DNA from: an uncultured Bacilli bacterium
GTDB taxonomy: Bacteria; Bacillota_I; Bacilli_A; RF39; UBA660
Assembly: GCA_934096265.1 (NCBI GenBank)
Contig: CAKOLI010000006.1
Span: forward strand, 253 to 64,252
DNA: 64,000 nucleotides
Direction: 5' to 3'
Position numbers and translations under genes: made by a program. Positions 12,326-61,637 of this stretch are shown here, piece by piece. The stretch's first letter is position 1, and each line of letters starts with the position of its first letter. Below the pieces are notes generated by a model that searched no databases, was not told the origin of the DNA, and worked only from the letters and a program-made list of their open reading frames with translations.

Positions 12326-13213
12326 TTAATTTATCTTAATATTCATTACCTCTAAAATACGATTTAAATCCGCACTATTTTCAAAAAATATTTGCATTTT
12401 CTTACCATCTATTTTCACTTTAGTACCTAATATTTCTTTTAACTCATCTTCCACATATTGATAATCATTATTAGTACTTACCCTAGTAATAGGCACTTTC
12501 TTCTTAATATTATCCGTACTAGTTAAATTCTCCAAATCATGAACACTCATATTCTTAAGTACTATATCACTAGCTAGCCTCTTAATCTCCTCTTCATCAT
12601 CTAGCTTACTAAGAACCCTAGCATGCCCCATAGAAATCTTATCATCCAAAACCATATCTTGAACTTCCGAAGGAAGCCTCAAAAGACCAAGTGTATTAGT
12701 AATATGACTTCTACTCTTACCAAGCTTAAGTGCTAAATCTTCCTGCCTAATATGCAAACTATCAATAATACCTTTATAAGCCCAAGCAAGCTCTATCGCA
12801 GACAAATTCTCCCTTTGTAAATTTTCCAAAAGGGCTATTTCCCTCATCTCATCGTCACTAAAATCTTTAATAATCGCAGGAATAGTCTTCTTTCCCGCTA
12901 ATTTAGACGCTCTAAGCCTTCTTTCACCAGCTACTAAATAATAACCCTTAATAGTCTTCTTAACTATAATAGGTTGAAAAACACCATAATTACGAATAGA
13001 AGTAGCGAGTTCATCAAGAGCCTCTTGATCAAAATTCCTTCTTGGTTGATAAGGATTAACCTTAATATCATCCACATCAATCTGTACAATATCATCTTCA
13101 CGAGATGACTCAACTATATTACTCTCAAACGTATCAAAATCTATAGCTTCCCCATTAAATAATTGCTCTAACCCTCTACCAAGAGCCTTCTTTTTTTGTT
13201 CCATTTCTAACAA
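12326..13213 (-). CDS. spo0J: Chromosome partitioning protein ParB / Spo0J (parS-type specificity signature)
   Basis: GERRLRAS CTP-binding box. The HTH region LGKSRSHITNTLGLL...SMGHARVL resembles B. subtilis Spo0J LGKSRPHIANHLRLL...SAGHGRTL (recalled). It overlaps the end of soj. Confidence 0.9.
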   Translation of the reverse strand: MLEMEQKKKALGRGLEQLFNGEAIDFDTFESNIVESSREDDIVQIDVDDIKVNPYQPRRNFDQEALDELATSIRNYGVFQPIIVKKTIKGYYLVAGERRLRASKLAGKKTIPAIIKDFSDDEMREIALLENLQRENLSAIELAWAYKGIIDSLHIRQEDLALKLGKSRSHITNTLGLLRLPSEVQDMVLDDKISMGHARVLSKLDDEEEIKRLASDIVLKNMSVHDLENLTSTDNIKKKVPITRVSTNNDYQYVEDELKEILGTKVKIDGKKMQIFFENSADLNRILEVMNIKIN

Positions 13214-13991
13214 TAACCTCCTTTGCTAAATTAAGATATGCCAAAGTACCCTTACTAGTAGGGTCATATGCGGCAATAGGTTTACCATGACTAGGAGCCT
13301 CAGATAACCTAACCAACCTTGGAATAATCGTATTATAAACCCTCTCTTTAAAAAACTCCCTAATATTCTCTACAACCTCTAAACCTAAATTAGTTCTTGA
13401 ATAAAGCATAGTTAGTAAAACACCCTCAATCTCTAAATTAGGATTAATCTTCTTCTTCGCAAGCATTATCGTATTCATAAGTTGCATAATACCCTCTAAC
13501 GCAAAAAACTCACATTGAACAGGTATAATAACAGAATCAGAAGCCGCCAAAGCATTAGTAGTAAGTATTCCAAGTGAAGGAGGACAATCCAAAATCACAT
13601 AATCGTAATTATCCTTAACAAGCAAAATACCTTTCTTTAACTGACCATTCTTATCAAAAACTTGACCCTGATTAACAGCATTCCTCTCCTTATTCATGAG
13701 TTCAATATCTACCCCAGCCAAATTAATGTAAGCAGGTATCAAACTCAAATTCTTATATTTAGTTTTAATAATTGCCTTATCAATAGGAGACTTATCAGTA
13801 AGAACTTCATATATACTATCTCTTACCTCCCCCTTATTTATCCCCACCCCAGTAGTAGCATTACCTTGAGGATCCAAATCAACAAGCAAAACCTTCTTAT
13901 TTAATATCCCTAAAGAAGCAGCTAAATTAATACTAGTAGTAGTCTTACCTACGCCCCCTTTTTGATTTACCATTGCAATTACTTTTCCCAT
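13176..13991 (-). CDS. soj: ParA-family ATPase Soj
   Basis: MGKVIAMVNQKGGVGKTTT deviant Walker A. ATG at 13991 is preceded by GAAGGTG; the track start at 14060 is an extension. Confidence 0.92.
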   Translation of the reverse strand: MGKVIAMVNQKGGVGKTTTSINLAASLGILNKKVLLVDLDPQGNATTGVGINKGEVRDSIYEVLTDKSPIDKAIIKTKYKNLSLIPAYINLAGVDIELMNKERNAVNQGQVFDKNGQLKKGILLVKDNYDYVILDCPPSLGILTTNALAASDSVIIPVQCEFFALEGIMQLMNTIMLAKKKINPNLEIEGVLLTMLYSRTNLGLEVVENIREFFKERVYNTIIPRLVRLSEAPSHGKPIAAYDPTSKGTLAYLNLAKEVIVRNGTKKEGSW

Positions 13992-14109
13992 CGTTACACC
14001 TTCAATTCTTGTATATCTATTGTAACAAATTTTTATAAAAAAGAAAACACCTTTTATCAAAATATAAAATTATTTTAAATACATGCTATAATATTAATAA
14101 GGTGATAAC

Positions 14110-14852: not shown

Positions 14853-17800
14853 CTATTTAACATATTTTTTAATTAATACTAATACACCAAGAAGTAACAC
14901 ACTAAAATATGTATTATTATAATTACTTACACCTGTATGTGGAGGATTATCATTACCCATACCATCTTTTTCATAAACATAAGTAACAACTATCTCATCA
15001 CTTGTATAACTGCCATCTTTATTTGAAGGTTCACTATATAAATGATAATCCTTAATTTCTAATGCATAAGTATTATATAACTTACCAACTAAATCAGTCA
15101 TTTCTATAGAGTTAGCTAATTCTACACCATCTCTATCTACATACTTAACAATAACCTTACCCATAAGTACAGAAGTATCAACTTCATCTTCACAATAAGA
15201 AGTAACATCACTATCAAGAACTACCTTACTAGTAACCTTATTAGTAATAATATCACTATCAATATCTATATAAGAAATACTAATTTCTCTATCAAAATTA
15301 ATTACTTGATTATCTTCGTTTATATCAAACACTTCTATATAAGTAATAGTATTATTCTTACTATCATAAATTCCATCTAAAATATTAGATTTATTTAAAT
15401 CTATAGCATATGGTAACTCATCTACAATAGTCAAAGTAACCTTACCTACATAATCTTTAATTACAGATGCATACCTTATATTATAATCAACAGAATTATT
15501 AACATTATCCAAATCATTATCTCCATCCTTAGATAAAGCCTCTTCAGTAACATAACCATTTTCCTTAACATATAAAACATCAATATAGTTATCATTTACA
15601 TTAATAACTAAATCTTCCTCATTTTGAATATCTCCATCTTTATAACCCGTAGGTCTCATTGCATTCTTATCAATAGTATCTAACTTAATAACATCTCCAT
15701 ATGTAACATTACTAACTGAAGAACTACCTATCATATTATTTAAATCATCTTGATAATATCTTACTGTATATGATAAATCACTTCTAAGATTATAATAGAA
15801 AATCATCTCATTATCATTATTTGATTTAATTTCTAATAAAGAAGGATCTACCTTATTAAATACATAACCATCTGTTTCATGCTTTTCATAATCACTAGAT
15901 TTTAAAGTTGTACCATATTTAGCTTCACCAACTATAGTATAATCTTTATTCTCATTATAATTACCATTTAAATCTTGATAAAAATGTCTAATTACAAACT
16001 TATAATTATTTCTAACATAATATACTCTAATAACATTATCTTCTTCTACTGAACTAACTATTAACTCACTAGGATTTACCTTTTCAAACCTAAATCCATC
16101 CTCTAAATGTGGAATATAATTAGTAATCTTTTCATTATACTCAGCACTACCTAAATACATATACTCAGTATTTTCATAATACTTAGATTCTTCACTATCA
16201 TAACTTACATTTTCATAAAAATACCTTACTGTATAACTAAAAGTATCTTTAGTATATAAAACATCAATGTAGTTACCATTTACCTTAATAACTAAATCTT
16301 CCTCATTTTGAATATCTCCATCTTTATAACCCGTAGGTCTCATTGCATTCTTATCAATAGTATCTAACTTAATAACATCTCCATATGTAACATTACTAAC
16401 TGAAGAACTACCTATCATATTATTTAAATCATCTTGATAATATCTTACTGTATATGATAAATCACTTCTTTTAACATATAGCACATTAACAATATTAGAA
16501 GAATTATCAGTACTAACAATCAAACTAGTAGGATTATCAGGAGCTAAAGTATAACCATCTAATATATATTTGTCTAACTCAACATCAATAACTTTATCCT
16601 TAACAGAATCTCCAGTAACTTTATTTATATAATGAAGACTATCAGAAGGATCAGTAATAACATCCTTATAATATCTAATTTCATAAGTATACTTATTAGC
16701 CTCCCAATAAACTTGTGGATTTTTAGAAGGAGTTATATCCTTACTATTTGAATCTGCATCTACATAAGATAACTTATATGTAGAATTAGTATCATATAAC
16801 CCAGTAGGAACATCAGGATTAATATCTATATTGAAATTAAAACTAATACCATCCTCAGTTATATCACCAATTTCATATGTATATGTATTACCATCTACAT
16901 GATTATCAGAAGAATCAGTAAATACAAAATTACCACCTAAAGTATCTACTAAAGTAGCTTCAGTTCCCGCTAATTTAGGAACCATACTATCAAATACACT
17001 ATTTAACGCAGAAGCAATACTAGAAGTATCTGCATTATAATAAAATCCTTTTGTTTTATCATATGTACCTTCTTCATCACCAGTAGGATCACTAGCAACA
17101 ACTGTTGTATTAGAAGATACATACCTAAGTACAGAAGCAGCATTCGAAGTATCACTAATACCATACCCAATAGCGTATATACTAGATCCAGCATTCTTTG
17201 CCTTAGTTGCTTCCTTCTTAGCATTTTTTAATGCCATAGGATAAGAACAAACATTATTCCAATTACAAACTCTTCCATCTGTTCCGTAATAATATGTAGG
17301 TTCTCCATCACTTATAACTAATATAAATTTTTGAGCATCAAGCTCATCATCAACAGTATCTAATTTTCTTGCAGCTTCCTTAATACCACCAGCTAAATCA
17401 GTACCACCATAAGGATGACCAAATGATGCTTCATCAAACACCTTACCATCCTTAGTAAGATTAGATTTACTCTTAAATTCAGTCGCCGTAGTAGCACTAC
17501 CAGAAAAAGTAACCAAACTTACAAAAGCAACATCTCTAGTACTATTTGTATCCTTTGCAATTAATGCATCCGCAAAGTCACTAGCGCCTTTTATAGCATT
17601 TTCCCATTTATTACTTGTTAAAGCACTTCTTTTTTCATAACCATAACCATCCACACAAGCAATCTTAGTACCATCTGAAGCAGTATAATGTGCATCGCGT
17701 GTAACTATAGTAGAGTATCCACCTTTAGCGGAATCACAAATCATACTACCAGAAGTATCAAATACAATTACAACATAAATAGGTTTAATCTTTACATCAG

Positions 17801-18119
17801 GCTTATCAATATTCTTACCTACAACATCAAACTTAACATTATATCTTCCTAATATAACATTACCATCTTCATCATGTACTTTACTAACAGTCTTAGAAAC
17901 ACTAACGCCTCCTAAAACATCACTATTACCATCAGTAATTGTAGCAGAATCCCCATAAGAACCAGTAACAGGATTATAAACATCTCCTTTCTTAATATTA
18001 GAAGGAATAACTGAATCAGCTAAAACCGCAAGTGGAGATACAGTTTCAGTAATAACAATTATCAAAGCAAACAACAACTTGACAAACTTGTCAGCAAATT
18101 TCTTACAAACTTTTCTCAT
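14853..18119 (-). CDS. Sortase-anchored surface adhesin: signal peptide, VWA domain, about six MucBP-like repeats, (P)PxTG-type sorting signal
   Basis: N-terminal hydrophobic signal. VVIVFDTSGSM MIDAS motif. Repeated 70-80 aa modules start ...Y-x-V/I-R-Y/H-Y/F... The C-terminus is NDNPPHTG followed by a hydrophobic helix and KKYVK. Confidence 0.8.
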   Translation of the reverse strand: MRKVCKKFADKFVKLLFALIIVITETVSPLAVLADSVIPSNIKKGDVYNPVTGSYGDSATITDGNSDVLGGVSVSKTVSKVHDEDGNVILGRYNVKFDVVGKNIDKPDVKIKPIYVVIVFDTSGSMICDSAKGGYSTIVTRDAHYTASDGTKIACVDGYGYEKRSALTSNKWENAIKGASDFADALIAKDTNSTRDVAFVSLVTFSGSATTATEFKSKSNLTKDGKVFDEASFGHPYGGTDLAGGIKEAARKLDTVDDELDAQKFILVISDGEPTYYYGTDGRVCNWNNVCSYPMALKNAKKEATKAKNAGSSIYAIGYGISDTSNAASVLRYVSSNTTVVASDPTGDEEGTYDKTKGFYYNADTSSIASALNSVFDSMVPKLAGTEATLVDTLGGNFVFTDSSDNHVDGNTYTYEIGDITEDGISFNFNIDINPDVPTGLYDTNSTYKLSYVDADSNSKDITPSKNPQVYWEANKYTYEIRYYKDVITDPSDSLHYINKVTGDSVKDKVIDVELDKYILDGYTLAPDNPTSLIVSTDNSSNIVNVLYVKRSDLSYTVRYYQDDLNNMIGSSSVSNVTYGDVIKLDTIDKNAMRPTGYKDGDIQNEEDLVIKVNGNYIDVLYTKDTFSYTVRYFYENVSYDSEESKYYENTEYMYLGSAEYNEKITNYIPHLEDGFRFEKVNPSELIVSSVEEDNVIRVYYVRNNYKFVIRHFYQDLNGNYNENKDYTIVGEAKYGTTLKSSDYEKHETDGYVFNKVDPSLLEIKSNNDNEMIFYYNLRSDLSYTVRYYQDDLNNMIGSSSVSNVTYGDVIKLDTIDKNAMRPTGYKDGDIQNEEDLVINVNDNYIDVLYVKENGYVTEEALSKDGDNDLDNVNNSVDYNIRYASVIKDYVGKVTLTIVDELPYAIDLNKSNILDGIYDSKNNTITYIEVFDINEDNQVINFDREISISYIDIDSDIITNKVTSKVVLDSDVTSYCEDEVDTSVLMGKVIVKYVDRDGVELANSIEMTDLVGKLYNTYALEIKDYHLYSEPSNKDGSYTSDEIVVTYVYEKDGMGNDNPPHTGVSNYNNTYFSVLLLGVLVLIKKYVK
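15601..15785. repeat. 185-bp perfect direct repeat, copy 1 (inside the adhesin gene)
   Basis: Identical by eye to 16285-16469, offset 684 bp (228 codons). Encodes RSDLSYTVRYYQDDLNNMIGSSSVSNVTYGDVIKLDTIDKNAMRPTGYKDGDIQNEEDLVI. Confidence 0.85.
16285..16469. repeat. 185-bp perfect direct repeat, copy 2 (inside the adhesin gene)
   Basis: See copy 1. The flanks (15577-15600 versus 16261-16284) continue with a few mismatches. Confidence 0.85.
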
Positions 18120-34667: not shown

Positions 34668-35516
34668 TTATTTACCATTAATTGCATCATGATATTCCTT
34701 ATACACATCTGACTTAGGTACATGCCTATCCTTAGCAACCTTTTTAATCGCATCCATCATACTAATTCCTTGTTTAATATACATATTAACACTATCAACA
34801 ACATTAATATCAGAAAAAGCATTTATTTCCTTATTACCAGACACAACAATTACAAACTCACCTATAAATTCCTCTTTTTCTGAAAGTAACTTACTAATAC
34901 TACCTCTATATATACTCTCATATTTCTTAGAAATTTCCCTTGAAATGCTAATTTTTCTATCTCCAAATATCTCTAACATCAACTCTAACGTTCTTCTCAT
35001 TCTATGTGGTGCCTCATAAAAAATCATAGTATATTCATAATCAACTAATGAAACTAACTCTTTTCTACGCTTTCCTTCATTACTATTTAAAAATCCATAA
35101 AACATAAAAGGATTACTATCTAAAGAAGAAGTAACCAGTGCAAGAACAAAAGCGCATGCTCCAGGCAATGCAACAACATTATACCCATTAGAAGAAACAT
35201 AGTTTACCACCTTAAAACCAGGATCACTAATAACAGGCATCCCCCTATCAGACACAAGCCCTACATTCATCCCACTTTTTAAATTATCTAATACCTTAAA
35301 CTTAACCTTATCCTCATTATGATCATGCAATGCTACTAACTTCTTTTTAATATCAAAATGATTAAGCAAATTCAAAGTAACTCTAGTATCTTCGGAATAT
35401 ATAATATCAACCATTTTCAATATAGATACACTCCTAAAAGTCATATCATCCAAATTACCTATTGGAGTAGGTATTAAATATAAAGTAGGACTATCATCAT
35501 AACTCTTTTGCCACAT
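34668..35516 (-). CDS. rsmI: 16S rRNA (cytidine1402-2'-O)-methyltransferase
   Basis: LYLIPTPIGNLDDMTFRSVSIL...SEDTR and ISDPGF motifs. Confidence 0.92.
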   Translation of the reverse strand: MWQKSYDDSPTLYLIPTPIGNLDDMTFRSVSILKMVDIIYSEDTRVTLNLLNHFDIKKKLVALHDHNEDKVKFKVLDNLKSGMNVGLVSDRGMPVISDPGFKVVNYVSSNGYNVVALPGACAFVLALVTSSLDSNPFMFYGFLNSNEGKRRKELVSLVDYEYTMIFYEAPHRMRRTLELMLEIFGDRKISISREISKKYESIYRGSISKLLSEKEEFIGEFVIVVSGNKEINAFSDINVVDSVNMYIKQGISMMDAIKKVAKDRHVPKSDVYKEYHDAINGK

Positions 35517-39050: not shown

Positions 39051-40790
39051 CTACTTATATTCTATTATATCACTACCAACAATATTAATTAAGTCATTAA
39101 TATCATTATTTACATTTTTTTGCACTAATTCATCACTAGAATTTATACTATCGTCAACTTGTAACTCATCAATATATTTATATTGTATATTAGATTTTTT
39201 ATTTTTAACAAAGTTATTTTTTTCAACAAGCCACTCATTCTCGTTAAGTCCAATAACCAAGTAATTTTTATTTAAAACTTTTTTCAACAAACTACTAACA
39301 TCATCAGTACACTGATTCAATCTATCAGTAACGGAAATATTATTACCCACAATTATTATGTTATTAGAACCAGCTGCAACTGGTGTAGAGTCTTGTAAAA
39401 CACCTGCTATTACACCAAGATCATCATTCAATACATAATCAGCAATATTACTCCATTTTGCTTTTACAGCCGCCAACTCTTCCTTATTAGCAGTGGCAAA
39501 GGTATTATTAATTCTAATTTTTTTAATATCGTCTGATAAAGAGTTACTTCTTTCTACATTTAAAGCATTTGTATCATTATTAGCTACAAAATTATTTCCC
39601 GGGAAATAATTTGTATTATACTTTACTTTGGGAAATAATTTTATTTCCCGAGTTTCATTCTCACTATTTTGGGAAATATTTTTATTTCCCAAATCTTCAT
39701 CTTTCAAATCATTATTTAATTTCGATGACATTTTAATCAAAAAGACTTGAATCATAATTTTTGGATAAGAAGTATTTTTAATATTAAATGACAATTGATT
39801 TGCAGAGTCAATAAACATATACAAAAATTCTTCATTTACAAAATTTTTTAATTCTTTCAATTTTTCATTTTTATAGTTTTCCACAGGCAAGTTAGGAGCA
39901 ACAATACTTATTAACAAATCTTTAGCAACAGCAATCAATTCATCAACTATTCTAAGCATATTTTTGCCTTTAATATCACATGTATCAATAAAATTAACAA
40001 TTTCTAAAACATTATGATGATACATATTAGTAAACAAATTACAAATATCTGAAAAAGATATACTTCCATTAATCTCATACACATCATCTATAGTAACGAC
40101 TTCTCCTTTAGAAGAAATTAACTGGTCTAACATATTAATTGAATCACGCATACCACCATCTGAAAAAATTGCTATTTGTTTTAATAATTCTTCATCTATA
40201 TTTATACCTTCTAAATTAATAATTCTTTTTAAGTTTTCCACAATGTTTTCCACAGATATACGACTAAAATTAAATTTTTGACATCTTGATAAAATAGTAG
40301 CTGGTATTTTTTGTTCTTCAGTAGTAGCTAAAATAAATATTACATGTCTAGGTGGTTCTTCAAGAGTTTTCAACAATGCATTAAATGCACCTATTGAAAG
40401 CATATGTACCTCATCTATAATATAAACTTTATATTTTGATATTGAAGGAACAAGATTAATTTTATCTCTAATTTCCCTTATTTCATCAACTCCATTATTA
40501 GATGCAGCATCAATCTCAATAATATCGTCATTACAATTATTTGCAATACTTATACAACTTTCACATTTTCCACAGGGTTCTCCGTTAATTGGATTTAAAC
40601 AATTAACCATTTTGGCTATTAATTTTGCTGTTGTTGTTTTACCTGTACCACGCGGACCACAAAACAAATAAGCATGAGTAATTTTATTATTAATAATAGC
40701 ATTTTGGATAGTTTCCACAATCATATTTTGACCTGCAATTTCACTAAACTTTTTAGGTCTATATTTTCTATACAAAGCTAAGTATTCCAC
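39051..40790 (-). CDS. dnaX: DNA polymerase III gamma/tau subunit
   Basis: GPRGTGKTT Walker A, zinc module CGKCESC, DEVHML and SRCQ motifs. GTG start is preceded by AGGAGGTG. Asn-rich variable C-terminal half. Confidence 0.95.
   Translation of the reverse strand: MEYLALYRKYRPKKFSEIAGQNMIVETIQNAIINNKITHAYLFCGPRGTGKTTTAKLIAKMVNCLNPINGEPCGKCESCISIANNCNDDIIEIDAASNNGVDEIREIRDKINLVPSISKYKVYIIDEVHMLSIGAFNALLKTLEEPPRHVIFILATTEEQKIPATILSRCQKFNFSRISVENIVENLKRIINLEGINIDEELLKQIAIFSDGGMRDSINMLDQLISSKGEVVTIDDVYEINGSISFSDICNLFTNMYHHNVLEIVNFIDTCDIKGKNMLRIVDELIAVAKDLLISIVAPNLPVENYKNEKLKELKNFVNEEFLYMFIDSANQLSFNIKNTSYPKIMIQVFLIKMSSKLNNDLKDEDLGNKNISQNSENETREIKLFPKVKYNTNYFPGNNFVANNDTNALNVERSNSLSDDIKKIRINNTFATANKEELAAVKAKWSNIADYVLNDDLGVIAGVLQDSTPVAAGSNNIIIVGNNISVTDRLNQCTDDVSSLLKKVLNKNYLVIGLNENEWLVEKNNFVKNKKSNIQYKYIDELQVDDSINSSDELVQKNVNNDINDLINIVGSDIIEYK
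39592..39690. promoter_or_regulatory. Cluster of Noc-binding-site (NBS) sequences inside the dnaX coding sequence
   Basis: Exact TATTTCCCGGGAAATA at 39593-39608. Everted half-site pairs GGGAAATAATTTTATTTCCC at 39630-39649 and GGGAAATATTTTTATTTCCC at 39671-39690. Confidence 0.6.
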
Positions 40791-41303: not shown

Positions 41304-41324
41304 TCAATCTTCAACTCCTAAAAA

Positions 41325-41403
41325 AAATAGTGCACATATTAAGAGGCTAGTTAAGCTGCTATTTTCCAATCCTGACTTGTTACTAGCATTAATATTGCAC
41401 TAC
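41325..41403 (-). ncRNA. ffs: Short (4.5S-type) signal recognition particle RNA
   Basis: Minus strand AGTGCAATATTAATGCTAGTAACAAGTCAGGATTGGAAAATAGCAGCTTAACTAGCCTCTTAATATGTGCACT folds as one long hairpin. Its apex GTCAGG-ATT-GGAA-AAT-AGCAGC matches the conserved domain IV GUCAGGUCCGGAAGGAAGCAGC. It is followed by ATTTTTTTT. In B. subtilis scr lies in the same neighbourhood, between tadA and dnaX. Confidence 0.65.
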
Positions 41404-41407
41404 TAAT

Positions 41408-41436
41408 AATATATACTAATTATTTAAAAATTTCAA
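41408..41436 (-). promoter_or_regulatory. SigA-type promoter for the SRP RNA
   Basis: Minus strand TTGAAA-N17-TATATT, with the -10 ending about 6 nt before the first base of the SRP helix. Confidence 0.5.
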
Positions 41437-41444
41437 CATTTTTT

Positions 41445-42992
41445 ATGTTCCACGTGGAACATGTATCATAAATTATTAAAAAATAATTAGACTTATAACA
41501 ACAATAATATTAAAATTAGACATTAGTAAGCTAAAAGTATATAATCAGTAATATTAAATATATTTAAATATTAAGTAATTATACAAATAAACGCAATTCT
41601 ATGTTCCACGTGGAACATAGAATTCATATTATATTCTATAATAATAATAATTAGTACAAAAACAATCATTAAACAGTAAATTATCTCTATCGTAAGCATA
41701 CAAGTATCTGCATTTTTATTAATGCTATTAATATATAAACAACGTAATTAATTATTTTTTTAGTTAGCATTACATTTTAATTAAAGTTATATATTCTATG
41801 TTCCACGTGGAACATAAAATATGCATTGAAAATTGCAAACTATTACTCATAATTATATTATTAACAATAATTAAACTTAAGTTTTAATTATTTAATGAGA
41901 AAATTATTTAACTAATAATAAATTAATATAATATGTAGTATTCATTGTATAGTAAAAAATATACCAAAATTTAATTTTAGCATAGTAAAATCATAATTAA
42001 GTATAAAATTAATATATATTTAAATCTCAACATTTATAATATAGATAATGTTCCACGTGGAACATGGCATATTTAATTATGTAACTAATTTAGCTAATAA
42101 AAAAAATAACAATTGCAATTAAATATAAGTAAAATTATATATAAATAATAATAATTAGTATAAAAATAATTATTAAACAGTAAATTTTCTTCATCGTAGA
42201 CATATAAATATCAGCATTTTTGTTAATGCTATTAATATATAAACAACATAATTAATAATTTATAACTTGCATTACATTTTAATTAAAGCTATGTGTTTTA
42301 TGTTCCACGTGGAACATAAAATATGCATTGAAAATTGCAAAATACTACACATAATTATATTAATTTATTTAAAACGTAAAACACCAATTATATAGTAAAA
42401 AACATACCAAAATTTAATTTTAGTATAGTAAAATCATAACTAAGTATAAAATTAATATATATTTTAATCTCAACATTCATAATATAGATAATGTTCCACG
42501 TGGAACATAGAATATGCATTAAAAATTACAAACTATCACACATAATAATATTTATTAACAATAATTAAACTTAAGTTTTTATTATTTAATGAGAAAATTA
42601 ATTAACTAATAATAAATTAATATAATGTGTAGTATACATTGTATAGTAAAAAACATACCAAAATTTAATTTTAGCATAGTAAAATACATAACTAAGTACA
42701 AAATTTACATATATATTTAAATTTAAATATTTATAATACCCATGTTCCACGTGGAACATAAAATACATGTTATAGCAATCTATTTTTATAATAGAAATTT
42801 AAAATATTTATATTTAAATTTAATTTCAATAAAATTATATGTATTAAAACTTTATATTATAAATAACAGGCTACAAAATCTATTTATTTATAATATTTAA
42901 ATATTAAGTAATAAACACATATCATTTAATTAAAAACTAATTATATAATTAATAATCACTTATTATAATACTTCATGTTCCACGTGGAACAT
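41445..42992. repeat. Array of eight identical 18-bp palindromes ATGTTCCACGTGGAACAT (parS-like) embedded in long AT-rich repeat units
   Basis: Copies at 41445-41462, 41601-41618, 41798-41815, 42048-42065, 42300-42317, 42491-42508, 42742-42759 and 42975-42992. The core TGTTCCACGTGGAACA differs at one position from TGTTNCACGTGAAACA. No ORF of 60 aa or more lies between 41304 and 43011. Confidence 0.9.
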
Positions 42993-50364: not shown

Positions 50365-50526
50365 TATATTCCTTCTTTCTATTATTATATTTATATTGAT
50401 TATTATACTGTGGAAAATGTGGAAAACTCTCTTAACTCTTTGATTTATAAGGCTTTACTTGCTCAGTCTATGTGGAAAACTTGTAGATAATTTTAGCACT
50501 TATAAACCTAATTATGTGGATAACAT
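50365..50526. promoter_or_regulatory. dnaA-dnaN intergenic oriC module: DnaA boxes plus an AT-rich unwinding candidate
   Basis: TGTGGAAAA at 50409, 50418 and 50471. TGTAGATAA at 50482. Perfect TGTGGATAA at 50515 overlapping the dnaA stop. The pure A/T run 50381-50407 abuts the boxes on the dnaN side. Confidence 0.7.
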
Positions 50527-51882
50527 TTTTTTAAGCTCTTTTATTATATCTTTTACTTGGTCATTTTCTTTCAAATCTTCTGCAATTTTATCACAAGAAT
50601 GCATAATAGTTGAATGATCCCTTCCACCAAAATAACTACCTATTCTAGGAAAAGATTCGTTAGTAATAACCCTACATAGATAAATAGCAATTTGTCTAGG
50701 AAATGCAATAGTTTTAGTTCTCTTTTTACCTTTTAAATCATCAATTTTAATTTGAAAATAATCACTAACTACTTGTTGAATACGATGTATATCATTTTTA
50801 AATGCACATTTAGTAATTAATTGATCTTTTAAGGCATCTATTGCAGTATCTAAATCTACTTTCCCATTATTCATCATTAAAGAATAAGCAAAAACTCTGG
50901 TTATAGCACCTTCCAGTTGTCTAACATCTGAATCAAAACTATTAGCAATATATTCTATTACTTCATCAGGAACATCCTTAGCAGATTCATTATACATTAT
51001 TTTATTTTTAATAATACTTTTTCTAAGTTCTAAATCAGGTGGAAATATATTTGCAGTAAGCCCCCAAGAAAATCTAGTCCGAAGTCTATCTTCTAATAAC
51101 TTCAAATCATTAACAGATCTATCCGATGCTATAATTATTTGCTTATTAGAGTTATATAATTCATTAAATGTGTGAAAAAACTCTTGTTGAGTCGCCGTAG
51201 CATTCTCTAAAAATTGAATATCATCAATTAACAATACATCAACATTTCGGTACTTGTTTTTAAAAGTATTAATTAAATCAAAATTATCTTTATCCTTATC
51301 TTTATTTCTAATAACACTAATAAAATCGTTAACAAAATCATCACTAGTAACATATAAAACCTTCATATCTTTATTCTTTAATATATAATTTCCAATAGCG
51401 TGCATTAAATGCGTTTTACCAAGTCCACTTTTCCCATATAAAAACAGTGGATTATATGCTTTTCCAGGTTTTTCCGCAACTGACAAAGCTGCAGTATATG
51501 CAAATTTATTGCTTTCCCCTTTAATAAAAGTCTCAAAAGTATAATTATTATTTAAATTAGCATCAGAATAATTATAAATTAAACTATCACTACTACTTTT
51601 ATCCACATTAGAAGAATTATCCTGTACCTCTTCTTCTAATAAAAAGTTAAAAGTATAGTTATAGCCAGTTATTGAAGAAAATATCTCCTCAATAATTGGT
51701 AAATAATTTTCAGTTAAATGTTTCTTATGAAGATTTAATGGAACAATAACAACAGCTACTTCACCATCTATTTTATATAACTTAGTATCTCTAAACCAAG
51801 CTTCAAATGAAATTGAAGAAATTTGTTCTTTAACTTTATCTAAAAAATTGTTCCAAACAACATTAGTGTCAACAGAATTCAT
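50512..51882 (-). CDS. dnaA: Chromosomal replication initiator DnaA
   Basis: MNSVDTNVVWNNFLDKVKEQIS..., GKSGLGKTHLMHAIGN Walker A, LLIDDIQFL, and the domain IV motif GGRDHSTIMHSCDKI. ATG at 51882 is preceded by GAAGGAG; the track start at 51966 is an extension. Confidence 0.97.
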   Translation of the reverse strand: MNSVDTNVVWNNFLDKVKEQISSISFEAWFRDTKLYKIDGEVAVVIVPLNLHKKHLTENYLPIIEEIFSSITGYNYTFNFLLEEEVQDNSSNVDKSSSDSLIYNYSDANLNNNYTFETFIKGESNKFAYTAALSVAEKPGKAYNPLFLYGKSGLGKTHLMHAIGNYILKNKDMKVLYVTSDDFVNDFISVIRNKDKDKDNFDLINTFKNKYRNVDVLLIDDIQFLENATATQQEFFHTFNELYNSNKQIIIASDRSVNDLKLLEDRLRTRFSWGLTANIFPPDLELRKSIIKNKIMYNESAKDVPDEVIEYIANSFDSDVRQLEGAITRVFAYSLMMNNGKVDLDTAIDALKDQLITKCAFKNDIHRIQQVVSDYFQIKIDDLKGKKRTKTIAFPRQIAIYLCRVITNESFPRIGSYFGGRDHSTIMHSCDKIAEDLKENDQVKDIIKELKKMLST

Positions 51883-52299
51883 TGTATCATACTCCTTCAT
51901 TTCATTATAAATACATTTTAACTTATTTTTTGACAAAAAGAAACCCTTTTTTACACTTTTCATCATAAATTCACAAGATATTCACAGGATATCAACAAGC
52001 TAAAGTTAATTAAATCAACTAATTCGTCATTTTTCCCCAGAAAACAACATTTTTCATATAAACATTGTGTACAACTTTATTAACATCTATGTGGATAACT
52101 GTGTATAGCTTTCAAAACTTGTATAATTTAAGCAAAATATTAGAAATTTATCAACAAAACACCTGTGGAAAACTATAAAAATACCAAACAAATTAACAAT
52201 TAAGGTGTGCATAACTAATAATTACAAAAAATATAATTAAAAAAAAAGACATAATCCTTTTTATAAAGATTAGTTCTCTTTTAAATACATATATTTATC
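51883..52299. promoter_or_regulatory. Upstream dnaA region with a DnaA-box cluster (dnaA promoter / oriC upstream module)
   Basis: Perfect TGTGGATAA at 52090-52098, TGTGGAAAA at 52164-52172, TGTGCATAA at 52206-52214, all in the same orientation. Weaker 2-mismatch sites lie nearby. Confidence 0.65.
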
Positions 52300-53721
52300 T
52301 TAATTTTTATTTATATTAATTATAATTTGATATTTATCAGCTAAATCAAGTTCAGTTACATTTACTTTATTATTACCATTACTAGCATTCTTAACAGTAT
52401 TACGAATTTCATTAACAATATTATTAAAGTCACTATTATTACTACTTTCAGTTACTTTCACACTTAAACTTGATAAACCATCACTATTAGTATCAATTTT
52501 TTCAATATTAACAGGTTTAATTTCATCATTAAACATATTACCATTATCGACATTTTTTGCACTTATTTGAGAAGTTAAATCATTAGTTGTAACAAATTCA
52601 TCATTCAAAGAAGGGAAAAACTTATTACCGTTCAAAGAAAATAAATTATTATTTGTATTATTATCATTACTAACATCTTTTGGTAAATCAGATTTTAATA
52701 AATCATCAAAATTAGGTAAATCTTTAGGTCTATTAATATCTTCTGCTACCTCTTTAATTTTATTAATATCAATAGCTTGAGTCTTATCTTCAATAACTGC
52801 TTCAGTATCATTAAATACATTAGATTTAGCATCAACAATATCCAATCCATTCAAGGCTTTTTGCATATTATCATTGATATCCATATCCATAACATTACTA
52901 TTACCAGTAGGATTATTATTTAAATTATTTAAGTTTATAACATCATTATTAACATTATTATCTCCAAAATTAGGTATTGATATATCATTATTAGGAGTAA
53001 CTACATTATTATTTTGAATATTATTACTAATATTAGTATTAAGTTCCTTTGACATATTAACATTAGATAAAGCATTATTAGAATTTAAAGAAATGTCTCC
53101 ATTATTATTAGCTTTAGCATTTAAAATATCTTTTATCAAATCATCAGTTTGTTTGACAGTTAATCTATCATTTATAATATTATTTAATATTTTAGATTGC
53201 TCATTAAAATCTTTTAATTGTAACAGACTTCTAGCATGTCTTTCGGATATTTTATTAGTAAGTAATGCTTGTTGTACATCTTCCCCTAAATTTAATAGTC
53301 TTAATTTATTTGCAACATTAGATTGACTTTTTCCCATTCTAATAGCAAGTTGATCTTGTGTAAGTTGCCCTAAGTCAAGTAATCTCTTATAAGATTTGGC
53401 TTCTTCTAACGCAGATAATTGTTTCCTTTGAATATTTTCCACTACTGCAACTTCTGCACTTTCTTTGTCATCTAATTCAGTAATAATCGCAGGAATCTCA
53501 CTAAGCCCTGCTTTAACAGCGGCTTTAAATCTTCTTTCACCTGCTATAATTTCATATTTATCTCCTATTTTTCTAAGAACCAATGGTTGTATAATACCAT
53601 GTTGCTTAATTGAAGCAGTTAATTCATTAAGCTCGTCTTCATTAAATGTTAAACGTGGTTGAAAACGATTAGGAATAACATCATCTATTTTAATATTTAA
53701 AATTTCTTTTCCTAAATTCAT
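52300..53721 (-). CDS. noc: ParB-family nucleoid occlusion protein Noc homologue with a roughly 230-aa Asn-rich C-terminal extension
   Basis: PNRFQPR and GERRFKAA boxes. HTH MGKSQSNVANKLRLL...SERHARSL matches B. subtilis Noc LGKGQSTIANKLRLL...TERHARAL (recalled) rather than Spo0J. Follows rsmG. ATG at 53721 is preceded by AAGGAGGATAAT; the track start is TTG at 53886. Confidence 0.8.
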   Translation of the reverse strand: MNLGKEILNIKIDDVIPNRFQPRLTFNEDELNELTASIKQHGIIQPLVLRKIGDKYEIIAGERRFKAAVKAGLSEIPAIITELDDKESAEVAVVENIQRKQLSALEEAKSYKRLLDLGQLTQDQLAIRMGKSQSNVANKLRLLNLGEDVQQALLTNKISERHARSLLQLKDFNEQSKILNNIINDRLTVKQTDDLIKDILNAKANNNGDISLNSNNALSNVNMSKELNTNISNNIQNNNVVTPNNDISIPNFGDNNVNNDVINLNNLNNNPTGNSNVMDMDINDNMQKALNGLDIVDAKSNVFNDTEAVIEDKTQAIDINKIKEVAEDINRPKDLPNFDDLLKSDLPKDVSNDNNTNNNLFSLNGNKFFPSLNDEFVTTNDLTSQISAKNVDNGNMFNDEIKPVNIEKIDTNSDGLSSLSVKVTESSNNSDFNNIVNEIRNTVKNASNGNNKVNVTELDLADKYQIIININKN

Positions 53722-53807
53722 ATTATCCTCCTTATTCTTTATACAATTATTATAATACACTATATTTGTCGAAAAAACAAGAAAAAAATAAATTTTAAAC
53801 ATTTTTT

Positions 53808-53913
53808 GGGAAATAATTTTATTTCCCAAGGTAAAATAAGGGTTTATATATATAAAAAATATTTCCCGGGAAATATTTTTACACAAAAAAATTGGGAAAT
53901 AAAATTATTTCCC
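53808..53913. promoter_or_regulatory. Cluster of NBS sequences in the rsmG-noc intergenic region
   Basis: Exact TATTTCCCGGGAAATA at 53860-53875. Everted pairs GGGAAATAATTTTATTTCCC at 53808-53827 and GGGAAATAAAATTATTTCCC at 53894-53913. Confidence 0.65.
53884..53913 (-). terminator. Possible rsmG terminator, coincident with one everted NBS-like palindrome
   Basis: Minus strand GGGAAATAA-TT-TTATTTCCC followed by AATTTTTTTGTGT, 13 nt after the rsmG stop. Confidence 0.4.
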
Positions 53914-53925
53914 AAACTAAATTCA

Positions 53926-54627
53926 TTATAATGGAGATTTTTTTATTTCTTTATACGCTCTTGGAAATTTATTATTTGTATTTCCTATTTTTTTAAATGA
54001 GATTAATAATCTCTCGCTATTTTCAATTGGTAGTAAAAATTCCAATCTTTTATCTTCCTTAAAATTCATTTTCTTTAAACAATTATCAAGATTGTTAAAT
54101 TCGTCCCCCGCTTTTGCTTTCATCGCGATAAAGTGCCCACCAACTTTTACAGAAGCACCAGATATTTCAAGTAACTGACTCATACCTGTCACTGCTCTTC
54201 CAGTTACTATATCAAACATTTCTCTATTATTTCTAGTAAATATTTCCGCTCTATCATTAACAACAACAACATTACATAAATTTAATTCATCCACAATAGC
54301 CTTCAAAAAATTACATCTTTTTCCTAAAGAATCTAACAAAGTAAGCTTAATATTTGGAAATATTATTTTTAAAGGAATACCAGGAAATCCCGCTCCTGTG
54401 CCAATATCACATACACTCTGCTTGTCAAAATCAATAATTTTACATATAGTTAAAGAGTCAAAAAAATGTTTTAAATATATAGCATCTTCATCAGTAATAG
54501 AAGTTAAATTAATCATTTTATTCCATTCTATTAACATATTAAAATATTTTTCAAACTGTTGTAACTGACAATCATTAATATCAATATTTAAATCTTTCAA
54601 ATGAGTAATAAAATCTTCTCTATTCAT
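53926..54627 (-). CDS. rsmG: 16S rRNA (guanine527-N7)-methyltransferase
   Basis: DIGTGAGFPGIPLKI SAM motif. Overlaps the mnmG end. Conserved mnmG-rsmG order. Confidence 0.93.
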   Translation of the reverse strand: MNREDFITHLKDLNIDINDCQLQQFEKYFNMLIEWNKMINLTSITDEDAIYLKHFFDSLTICKIIDFDKQSVCDIGTGAGFPGIPLKIIFPNIKLTLLDSLGKRCNFLKAIVDELNLCNVVVVNDRAEIFTRNNREMFDIVTGRAVTGMSQLLEISGASVKVGGHFIAMKAKAGDEFNNLDNCLKKMNFKEDKRLEFLLPIENSERLLISFKKIGNTNNKFPRAYKEIKKSPL

Positions 54628-59984: not shown

Positions 59985-60134
59985 AATTTACACCTCCAAA
60001 TCACCTAAAACAAAATTCTTTTATATTATATAGGGTAATTTCTCTATTGTCAATTATTTTTTATCTTTTTTATCTTTTTTCTTTATTTTTTACACATATT
60101 TTGTTATACTAATACTAAGAATAGGAGAGATAAT

Positions 60135-61637
60135 ATGCTAAAAAAAATTACAAATTCATTTCAAGAATCATTTAACACTATCTATCCTATAATATTTATA
60201 GTATTTCTAATAAACGTATTTATTCCTTTAGGTTTTATCAACTTAATCCTATTTCTAATAAGCTCCCTATTTATTATAATTGGTATTACTACATTTAACT
60301 TTGGCATAAACATTTCCTTAATATCTATAGGTAAATCTCTCGCAACCACTCTTTTAAAAAATAAAAAAATATCCCTAATCCTAATTATAAGCTTCATAGT
60401 AGGCCTAGTTATCACCATCGCCGAACCAGACCTAATAGTCTTATCAAATCAACTAACAAACATTCCAAACATCCTATTTATATCAGTTGTAAGCAGTGGT
60501 GTAGGTTTATTTTTAATGCTCGCTAGTTATCGTATACTATATAAAAAAGATTTTAACAAAATAGTTATATCATGCTATACATTAATTCTAATATTTCTTT
60601 TATTTATTCCACAAGAATTTATCCCAATCGCCTTTGACGCCTCAGGAGCCACCACTGGCTCTATAAGCGTACCATTCATACTAGCTTTTGGTTTAGGATT
60701 AGTATCTAATCGTAAAGATAAAAAAGCCAAAGAAGACAGCTTTGGCCTAGTAGGAATATGCTCTATAGGACCAATAATAACAGTATTACTAATGGGCTTA
60801 TTCTACAAACCAAATAGCACCTACACTCCTTCTATAGAAAATAACACAGAAGTAATAAAAATAATTACAAGTGCCCTATTAAAATATAGTAAAGAAATAT
60901 TTATATCATTACTACCAATAATCATAATATTAATAATATATCAACATAAAAAACAAATATACACTCCTAAAAAACTAAAAAAAATATCCCTAGGTATATT
61001 CCTAACATTTATAGGCTTAACCCTATTCTTAACAGGTGCTAACGTAGGATTTTTAAAAATAGCATACAACATAGGAAATAAAATAGTATTATCTGAATAT
61101 AGTAACTTATTTTTACCTCTAGGTATGATTATAGGATATTTCTCTGTAACTGCAGAACCATCAGTAAAAATCTTAACTGAACAAATAGAAAACATAACAG
61201 GAGGCAGCATATCTAAAAAACTAATTAACTTTTGCCTATCTATAGGTGTTGCCATCGCAGTATTATTATCTCTAACCAGAGTACTAACAGGAATATCCAT
61301 ACTATATTTCATAATCCCAATATACATATTAGTAATAATACTAACCCTTGTAACACCTAAAATATTTACCGTAATTGCTTTTGACTCAGGAGGAGCAGCT
61401 TCTGGTGTCATGACAACATGTTTCTTACTTCCCCTGGCCATTGGTGCAGCCACATCCCTAGAAGTAAACATCATCAAATCTGCCTTTGGAATGGTAGCCC
61501 TAGTCGCGGCATCTCCCTTATTAATAATCCAAATACTAGGCTTAACATACAAAATAATCAAACAACGAAGCATCAAAAAACTAAAAATAGATGAAAGCAT
61601 TATAGAATACAAATGGGGGAATTCATATGGAAAATAA
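60135..61637 (+). CDS. Polytopic membrane protein, duplicated DUF1538-type architecture
   Basis: 500 aa, about 12 hydrophobic segments in two similar halves. Followed by, and overlapping, a P-II-like gene; I recall this pairing as typical for DUF1538. Confidence 0.6.
   Translation: MLKKITNSFQESFNTIYPIIFIVFLINVFIPLGFINLILFLISSLFIIIGITTFNFGINISLISIGKSLATTLLKNKKISLILIISFIVGLVITIAEPDLIVLSNQLTNIPNILFISVVSSGVGLFLMLASYRILYKKDFNKIVISCYTLILIFLLFIPQEFIPIAFDASGATTGSISVPFILAFGLGLVSNRKDKKAKEDSFGLVGICSIGPIITVLLMGLFYKPNSTYTPSIENNTEVIKIITSALLKYSKEIFISLLPIIIILIIYQHKKQIYTPKKLKKISLGIFLTFIGLTLFLTGANVGFLKIAYNIGNKIVLSEYSNLFLPLGMIIGYFSVTAEPSVKILTEQIENITGGSISKKLINFCLSIGVAIAVLLSLTRVLTGISILYFIIPIYILVIILTLVTPKIFTVIAFDSGGAASGVMTTCFLLPLAIGAATSLEVNIIKSAFGMVALVAASPLLIIQILGLTYKIIKQRSIKKLKIDESIIEYKWGNSYGK

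Follow-up and report, generated by a model that had tools for sequence, protein, structure and literature searches.

Three palindromes in the spacer upstream of a noc-like gene, one canonical Noc-binding site (NBS) and two pairs of the same half-sites in everted order, are best read as predicted DNA sites for the Noc-type ParB paralogue encoded downstream (probability roughly 0.6). On this reading they would belong to a nucleation zone that flanks the replication origin, with the everted pairs as auxiliary docks. This would not be classical nucleoid occlusion, because the membrane helix of the protein is missing and the sites are not scattered. As far as the sequence allows a judgement, this helix-less Noc is probably a marker of the region around the replication origin and not of the chromosome as a whole. 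Hereafter, the window refers to the whole stretch of 64,000 nucleotides that was analysed.

A cluster of Noc sites in the rsmG-noc spacer

The spacer between rsmG and noc is 204 bp long and holds one NBS and both everted pairs, as well as the signals expected in front of noc:

53860-53875, no strand assigned: canonical 16-bp NBS TATTTCCCGGGAAATA, identical to the NBS given in PMC7383237 and PMC8429893, one of two in the assembly
53808-53827, no strand assigned: everted half-site pair on the noc side, GGGAAATAATTTTATTTCCC = GGGAAATA-ATTT-TATTTCCC, followed by an A-run on the coding (minus) strand and not terminator-like
53894-53913, with a hairpin at 53882-53915 on the minus strand: everted half-site pair on the rsmG side, GGGAAATAAAATTATTTCCC, likely the rsmG terminator
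53752-53780, minus strand: candidate noc promoter TTGTTT-17-TATTAT, read from the sequence and not flagged by the consensus scan, in a block nearly identical in the sister species (G001)
53727-53732, minus strand: strong noc ribosome-binding site AGGAGG, preceding the noc ATG
52300-53721, minus strand: Noc-type ParB paralogue of 473 aa, recognised by domain, profile and PDB matches, without the N-terminal membrane helix

The everted sites follow the general 20-bp form GGGAAATA-N4-TATTTCCC, in which the two 8-bp half-sites of the NBS stand in swapped order, and the two 20-mers near noc are reverse complements of each other. An earlier note on this DNA had reported that the 16-mer is identical to the published B. 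subtilis NBS and that an everted pair lies on either side of it, and both observations hold at these positions. Its estimates of spacing need revision: the everted spacers, given as 2-4 bp, both measure 4 bp (all AT), and the flanking distance, given as about 35-50 bp, amounts to gaps of 32 and 18 bp between the NBS and its two pairs.

A Noc-type protein without the membrane helix

The protein encoded at 52300-53721 combines a ParB N-terminal, CTP-binding domain (PF02195, 1.2e-33) with a ParB helix-turn-helix (HTH) domain (PF17762, 1.6e-31), and the CTP-binding motifs GERRFKAA and ENIQR are kept. The earlier note had called the gene a noc homologue, and structure and profile comparisons bear this out: in a PDB search, Noc of G. 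thermoleovorans (212 bits) and of B. subtilis (190 bits) scored above Spo0J (168 bits), and the Noc model TIGR04285 (281.5 bits) scored above the generic ParB model (parB_part, 179 bits). The score on TIGR04285 lies below the curated NCBIfam cut-off of 315 bits because only model positions 1-202 of 255 align, the C-terminal domain being separated by a linker insertion. This linker comprises about 230 N-rich, disordered residues between the HTH domain and a short, conserved C-terminal domain.

The Noc-type recognition residues ascribed to the gene by the earlier note are present in part. In the Caulobacter numbering of PMC7383237, three of the four specificity residues match (Q173, K179, and R201; KSQSNVANKLRLLN...SERHAR), and the fourth does not, position 184 being N in place of K. 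One lysine at position 179 or 184 is reported to suffice for NBS specificity (PMC7383237); K184 is near-invariant in Noc, and the N at this position counts against the preferred reading. Taking the alignments and residues together, we conclude that the protein is Noc by descent and by predicted DNA specificity.

At the N-terminus, residue 5 of the protein is aligned with residue 26 in the Noc of G. thermoleovorans and with residue 28 in that of B. subtilis, such that the protein starts about 22 residues later. From this alignment, and from the strong AGGAGG ahead of the ATG, we predict that helix alpha1, which targets the membrane, and helix alpha2 are both missing. Full-length relatives are equally short: all 68 of the 68 extracted proteins start 8-15 residues before the motif PNRFQPR, and their linkers are long and variable. 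The membrane-targeting helix of Noc has been described as extremely conserved and needed for function (Adams 2015, PMC4331003). Altogether, the predicted system lacks three features tied to classical Noc function, namely the membrane helix, scattered sites, and a score above the TIGR04285 family cut-off.

The length and composition of the linker (window positions 52300-53130, compared with loci L042-L121) vary greatly, and three short motifs recur across genera: a rough DI..IK..A.DI, [ND]..[DS]LL[KQR], and [KR][FY]F[PN].L[ED][DE]E (GNKFFPSLNDE here). These recurrent motifs could bind partners in place of the missing membrane helix.

Two clusters of identical make-up, one of them inside dnaX

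When the window was searched for the NBS pattern with up to two mismatches, two matches were found, both exact (0.02 in shuffled sequences; 0 of 100 shuffles reached 2), and the everted pattern gave four matches, all exact (0.05 in shuffled sequences; 0 of 100 reached 4). The view of the earlier note that such motifs are improbable by chance in AT-rich DNA is thereby upheld. The note had also proposed a genome-wide count, and in the whole assembly (861 kb in 15 contigs, 28% G+C, about 80% complete, of which the missing fifth could hold scattered NBS) this count gives two NBS and four everted pairs, all of them inside the window and in two clusters only. No further 16-mer within two mismatches of the NBS exists in these 861 kb, and as a control, no everted pairs of parS half-sites were found in the genome. 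The two clusters lie 14 kb apart and have the same make-up, one NBS and two everted pairs each; one occupies the rsmG-noc spacer and the other lies in dnaX:

39593-39608, no strand assigned: second canonical NBS, in the dnaX linker, coding Y-F-P-G-N with the rare codons TTC and CCG
39630-39649, no strand assigned: everted pair in dnaX, coding R-E-I-K-L-F-P with CGG and CCC
39671-39690, no strand assigned: everted pair in dnaX, coding G-N-K-N-I-S with TCC

The dnaX cluster (39593-39690) is part of the coding sequence, at the variable linker that follows domain III, and argues for selection at the level of DNA, given three properties of the sequence. The codons used at its sites are among the rarest of the genome, with shares of 0.3% for CGG among Arg codons, 2.5% for CCG and 5.5% for CCC among Pro codons, and 4.1% for TCC among Ser codons. 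The reading frame also differs between genera, since the NBS in the dnaX linker of other genera of the family is read as I-S-R-E-I and that of the source species as Y-F-P-G-N. Finally, the spot in rsmI at which many relatives keep an NBS (about 34920-34950), which here reads ATTTCAAGGGAAAT, encodes the I-S-R-E-I peptide from common codons and has lost the site; codon bias erases a site where it is not maintained.

An exact NBS is found inside rsmI of many relatives (loci L010, L013-L015, L017, L019, and L035), coding I-S-R-E-I with the very rare CGG. One genome with such an rsmI site (G049) belongs to another family and has a Noc of normal length.

In the source genus, at dnaX codons of about 367-400, just past domain III, G GGA AAT comes to lie in frame through the NBS and one everted pair, with a TAA in the -1 frame. 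A programmed -1 frameshift as the selected feature of dnaX was rejected, as other genera read the dnaX NBS as ISREI and the second everted pair lies in a different frame. The resemblance of G GGA AAT to the tau/gamma frameshift site of E. coli is probably a coincidence, since the frame is not kept across genera.

The clusters bracket the origin and the parS array

On the minus strand of the window, genes are arranged in the order rpmH, rnpA, yidC, jag, mnmE, mnmG, rsmG, noc-like, dnaA, dnaN, recF, gyrB, gyrA, gap, ffs, tadA, and dnaX. The features that define the origin region and the ParB-parS system are as follows:

50512-51966, minus strand: dnaA, with DnaA-box clusters on both sides (50409-50523 and 52090-52214); likely oriC at 50409-52214
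41446-42991, no strand assigned: eight perfect parS (TGTTCCACGTGGAACA; palindrome ATGTTCCACGTGGAACAT) in the gyrA-ffs non-coding gap of about 1.6-1.7 kb
41313-41411, minus strand: ffs (SRP RNA gene)
12326-14060, minus strand: separate genes for ParA (Soj) and ParB (Spo0J-type; R173, G201), with ParB at 12326-13213

Along the window, the dnaX cluster (39.6 kb) is followed by the parS array (41.4-43.0 kb), gyrA, gyrB, recF, and dnaN, oriC and dnaA (50.4-52.2 kb), noc, and the noc cluster (53.8-53.9 kb). The Noc-site clusters hence bracket both oriC/dnaA and the parS array, and their NBS lie 1.9 and 10.9 kb from dnaA. The residues of parS specificity (R173 and G201; TGTTNCACGTGNAACA) are absent from the Noc-type protein, which has Q173 and R201 in their place, and belong to the ParB encoded at 12326-13213. 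Copies of parS are spaced 150-250 bp apart, and the spacers were not called a tandem repeat by Tandem Repeats Finder.

GC skew was rejected as a marker of oriC: it is negative over the whole window, including across dnaA, and tracks gene orientation. The genes from rpmH through dnaA, dnaN, and onward all lie on the minus strand; rpmH and dnaA diverge in B. subtilis, unlike here. The sole gene-strand switch, at about 60.0 kb (59985-60135), is located upstream of rpmH, and the DnaA-box clusters still flank dnaA.

Origin-proximal NBS across the family

We surveyed 61 genomes, 37 from the RF39-like family of uncultured gut Bacilli and 24 from other families. An exact 14-mer NBS core was present in 33 of the 37 family genomes, mostly in 1-5 copies (20 in one), and in one of the 24 genomes of other families. 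The gene dnaA was located in 32 genomes, and all 47 of the 47 NBS that share a contig with it (contigs of up to 150 kb) lie within 0.3-18.2 kb of dnaA. The suggestion of the earlier note that a Noc nucleation centre lies next to oriC fits these distances and those of 1.9 and 10.9 kb in the window, and we extend it to the family. In four near-complete relatives, all NBS with 0-1 mismatches share a single cluster, about 1 kb long and at a distance of 7.6-9 kb from dnaA, and the few remaining matches have two mismatches and are at the level of the reversed-pattern control.

Within the family, NBS are found repeatedly inside the dnaX linker and rsmI, in the jag-mnmE spacer, at the mnmE-mnmG junction, and in the gyrA-tadA gap. 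In many genera, the NBS of this gap alternate with parS, as in G033 (tandem units of 79 bp) and G006 (units of 66 bp). The source genus resembles these relatives in clade, helix-less Noc, and origin-near sites, but its gap contains only parS (eight copies), and its NBS are located in dnaX and in the rsmG-noc spacer, each accompanied by two everted pairs. We found no description in print of interleaved parS/NBS arrays in the gyrA-ffs gap.

The rsmG-noc spacer of the sister species has the same make-up as that of the source species in a different order: the NBS is followed after 8 bp by an everted pair with a T-run and, 13 bp further on, by an everted pair with one mismatch. In its dnaX, an exact NBS is accompanied by an everted-like site and by overlapping degenerate copies. 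Among 301 family genomes (214 genera), everted pairs with spacers of 2-6 bp occur in seven, and outside the source genus only as single copies, of which those of G135 (half-site, 5 bp, NBS) and G083 (NBS, 3 bp, half-site) share a half-site with an NBS. Tight everted pairs thus appear to be nearly confined to the source genus, and this genus-specific part rests on two species.

Extra half-sites beside the NBS of other genera (7 of 80 NBS versus 2.2% expected; five of them everted with 7-10 bp spacers) were set aside as weak, as several follow from the encoded peptide (L-G-N in RsmI; the terminal G-K-stop of MnmE); the half-sites beside the NBS of G135 and G083 are two cleaner cases. Sister families with Noc of canonical length were likewise dropped as a comparator for scattered NBS, since no NBS of the B. 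subtilis type rose above the reversed-pattern control; the contrast between scattered and clustered sites therefore rests on the literature. Three genomes of these families (G050, G046, and G041) encode a full-length Noc of normal size (307-354 bits on TIGR04285) and have no NBS above the control at two mismatches; their Noc may recognise sites that depart from the published consensus.

Hairpins, autoregulation, and relics as alternatives

The everted motifs could instead be RNA or DNA hairpins (terminators or mRNA stabilisers) that Noc does not use, their likeness to the NBS arising only from the need for GC-clamped palindromes in AT-rich DNA. We consider this unlikely as a general account, but it applies well to one site. 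On the minus strand, the motif at 53894-53913 forms a 10-bp stem with a 4-nt loop and a run of seven T, starting 10 nt after the rsmG stop codon, and 53882-53915 (-11.4 kcal/mol) is the sole terminator-like site in 53500-54100; this rsmG-side pair very probably terminates rsmG, a predicted dual use. Everted hairpins in general fold at -10 to -12 kcal/mol compared with -6 kcal/mol for the NBS, an everted pair of the sister species has a T-run too, and in another genus (G187) a lone, terminator-like everted pair with a T-run has no NBS nearby, showing that such hairpins can arise for other reasons. The three other pairs of the source genome form hairpins just as stable, but A-runs or coding sequence come after them: a T-run is missing from both strands in three of the four pairs, including both of those in dnaX. 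A pure hairpin reading therefore covers only one of the four everted sites, as the other three lack a T-run and two lie within coding sequence, where they are spelled with the rarest codons. Moreover, all four pairs are near an exact NBS (within 32 bp at the noc cluster) and have both 8-bp half-sites exact, and between the two species the half-sites stay fixed as the spacer varies, with the mismatches of the sister species uncompensated. A known RNA family for the everted motifs was also rejected, given that Rfam returned only generic hairpin matches below the gathering score. The outcome that the earlier note had regarded as fatal to its proposal, namely a role of the everted motifs confined to hairpins or terminators, is thus not what we find, with three of four pairs lacking a T-run and two in coding sequence.

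The cluster could also be chiefly an autoregulatory operator, at which Noc binds, spreads, and represses or tunes the noc promoter. Such a role agrees with its position, on the upstream side of the candidate noc -35 element at a distance of 27-135 bp, and with the presence of the arrangement in the sister species, and spreading proteins of the ParB family can silence nearby promoters, as mentioned for P. aeruginosa ParB (PMC10419367). All three sites nevertheless leave the core promoter free, and a cluster of identical make-up is located in dnaX, far from any noc promoter. An NBS in the 400 bp before noc was found in 0 of 75 related species for which 400 bp or more of sequence precede the gene, the sister species alone sharing it, and 80 metagenome loci (up to 1.5 kb on each side of noc; best matches at most 72% identical, hence none of the source genus) contained neither an NBS nor an everted pair. 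Since an NBS before noc is not conserved, autoregulation would be at most genus-specific; we regard it as an improbable main function, and control of noc transcription as a local side effect at most. A very unlikely reading is that the everted pairs have no function and are left over from tandem NBS, of which the outer halves decayed and only the inner junctions remain. Tandem NBS do exist in the family (two NBS 7 bp apart in G009 automatically form an everted junction), and the dnaX pair coding REIKLFP lines up with the right-hand half of the NBS (NISREIKLY) that other genera have at the same spot. Decay of this kind is hard to reconcile with eight inner half-sites that are all perfect beside outer flanks without residual similarity, with pairs kept in both species, and with dnaX pairs that persist against a strong codon bias, whereas the rsmI site has decayed to common codons.

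A proposed origin-flanking Noc complex

The preferred reading, predicted sites for the downstream Noc-type protein in an origin-flanking nucleation zone, can be expressed as a mechanism that follows published Noc and ParB biochemistry, in which dimers nucleate on their site, bind CTP, close into clamps, and slide (Jalal 2021, PMC8429893; Jalal 2020, PMC7383237; bioRxiv 2022.02.28.481274). Noc dimers would load on the canonical 16-mer as CTP-dependent clamps, close, slide, and spread over several kb, coating the origin region. The Noc ChIP signal in S. aureus spans 8-10 kb around a site (Pang 2017, PMC5540599), and if this span holds here, Noc from both clusters could cover the whole interval between them.

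In the everted pairs, the same two half-sites would stand tail to tail, 12 bp apart from centre to centre, and single DNA-binding domains could dock on them. On the canonical site, the two subunits pack together via swapped helices (bioRxiv 2022.02.28.481274). Because tail-to-tail half-sites may not allow this packing, and may not position the two N-terminal domains for clamp closure, we read the everted pairs as most likely auxiliary, non-loading docks that would raise the local occupancy of Noc; the rsmG-side pair would also serve as the terminator hairpin of rsmG.

The result would be an origin-proximal, centromere-like Noc complex beside ParB-parS, possibly a lineage-wide trait of RF39-like gut Bacilli. 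Without the membrane route, its roles could include organisation of the origin together with ParB, restraint of initiation as in S. aureus, or recruitment of partners via the linker motifs. A bolder proposal, which we hold to be rather doubtful, is that Noc, elsewhere a division inhibitor that tethers to the membrane, was repurposed in this clade as a second origin or centromere protein and that, in the source genus, it gained a further binding mode in which the everted pairs statically hold dimers whose N-terminal gates face apart and cannot close into a clamp, thereby acting as anchors or boundaries for sliding clamps, with the clusters fencing an oriC-parS domain.

Relation to known systems

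Noc is the textbook nucleoid-occlusion factor of Gram-positive bacteria, and its NBS-based nucleoid occlusion system was reportedly described by Wu in 2009. In B. subtilis, Noc has about 70 sites, spread over the origin-proximal part of the chromosome. The system in the window resembles that of B. subtilis and S. aureus in its identical 16-bp site, Q173/K179/R201, CTP-binding motifs, gene position after rsmG, and closest match to solved Noc structures. [quoted passage not shown] Noc of S. aureus occupies 41 loci over the origin-proximal part of the chromosome, compared to two clusters here, and a distribution of many NBS across the half to two-thirds of the chromosome that lies nearest the origin was not seen in the 861 kb (about 80% complete) of the assembly.

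Chromosomal ParB-parS centromeres provide a second comparison. They share with the Noc sites the small number of perfect palindromes within about 20 kb of oriC, some of them in coding sequence, and a binder that is a CTP clamp of the ParB family. Unlike these centromeres, the site and the specificity residues are Noc-type, and a genuine ParA/ParB/parS set is present in the same window. We know of no ParA partner for the Noc-type protein. A precedent for half-sites as docking sites exists in P. aeruginosa, where ParB binds half-parS (single palindrome arms) independently of spreading (PMC5961200, PMC10419367). Those half-sites are hundreds of scattered 7-mers, whereas in each everted pair two complete 8-bp half-sites stand tail to tail across a constant 4-bp spacer, always with a full site beside them.

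In the searchable literature, we found no description of origin-confined NBS, of a helix-less Noc, or of everted pairs of Noc or ParB half-sites, in agreement with the statement of the earlier note that the everted arrangement is not a described Noc site. The membrane helix and scattered sites have been held essential to the working of Noc (PMC4331003, PMC8429893). Here, a large clade of gut bacteria appears to keep the DNA-reading head of Noc and its exact site without the helix, and with sites confined to the origin, beside or interleaved with parS. This raises the questions of how Noc would act without membrane binding, whether one centromere serves two sister CTP clamps, and whether the link of Noc to replication initiation known from S. 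aureus (PMC5540599) is its older function. For the ParB family as a whole, the everted pairs pose the question of whether a dimer can read oppositely arranged half-sites and whether this blocks clamp closure.

Elsewhere in the window, positions 14853-18119 encode a predicted surface protein of 1088 aa with a signal peptide, a C-terminal membrane anchor, and a near-exact internal duplication of about 100 aa (RSDLSYTVRYYQDDLNNMIGSSS...).
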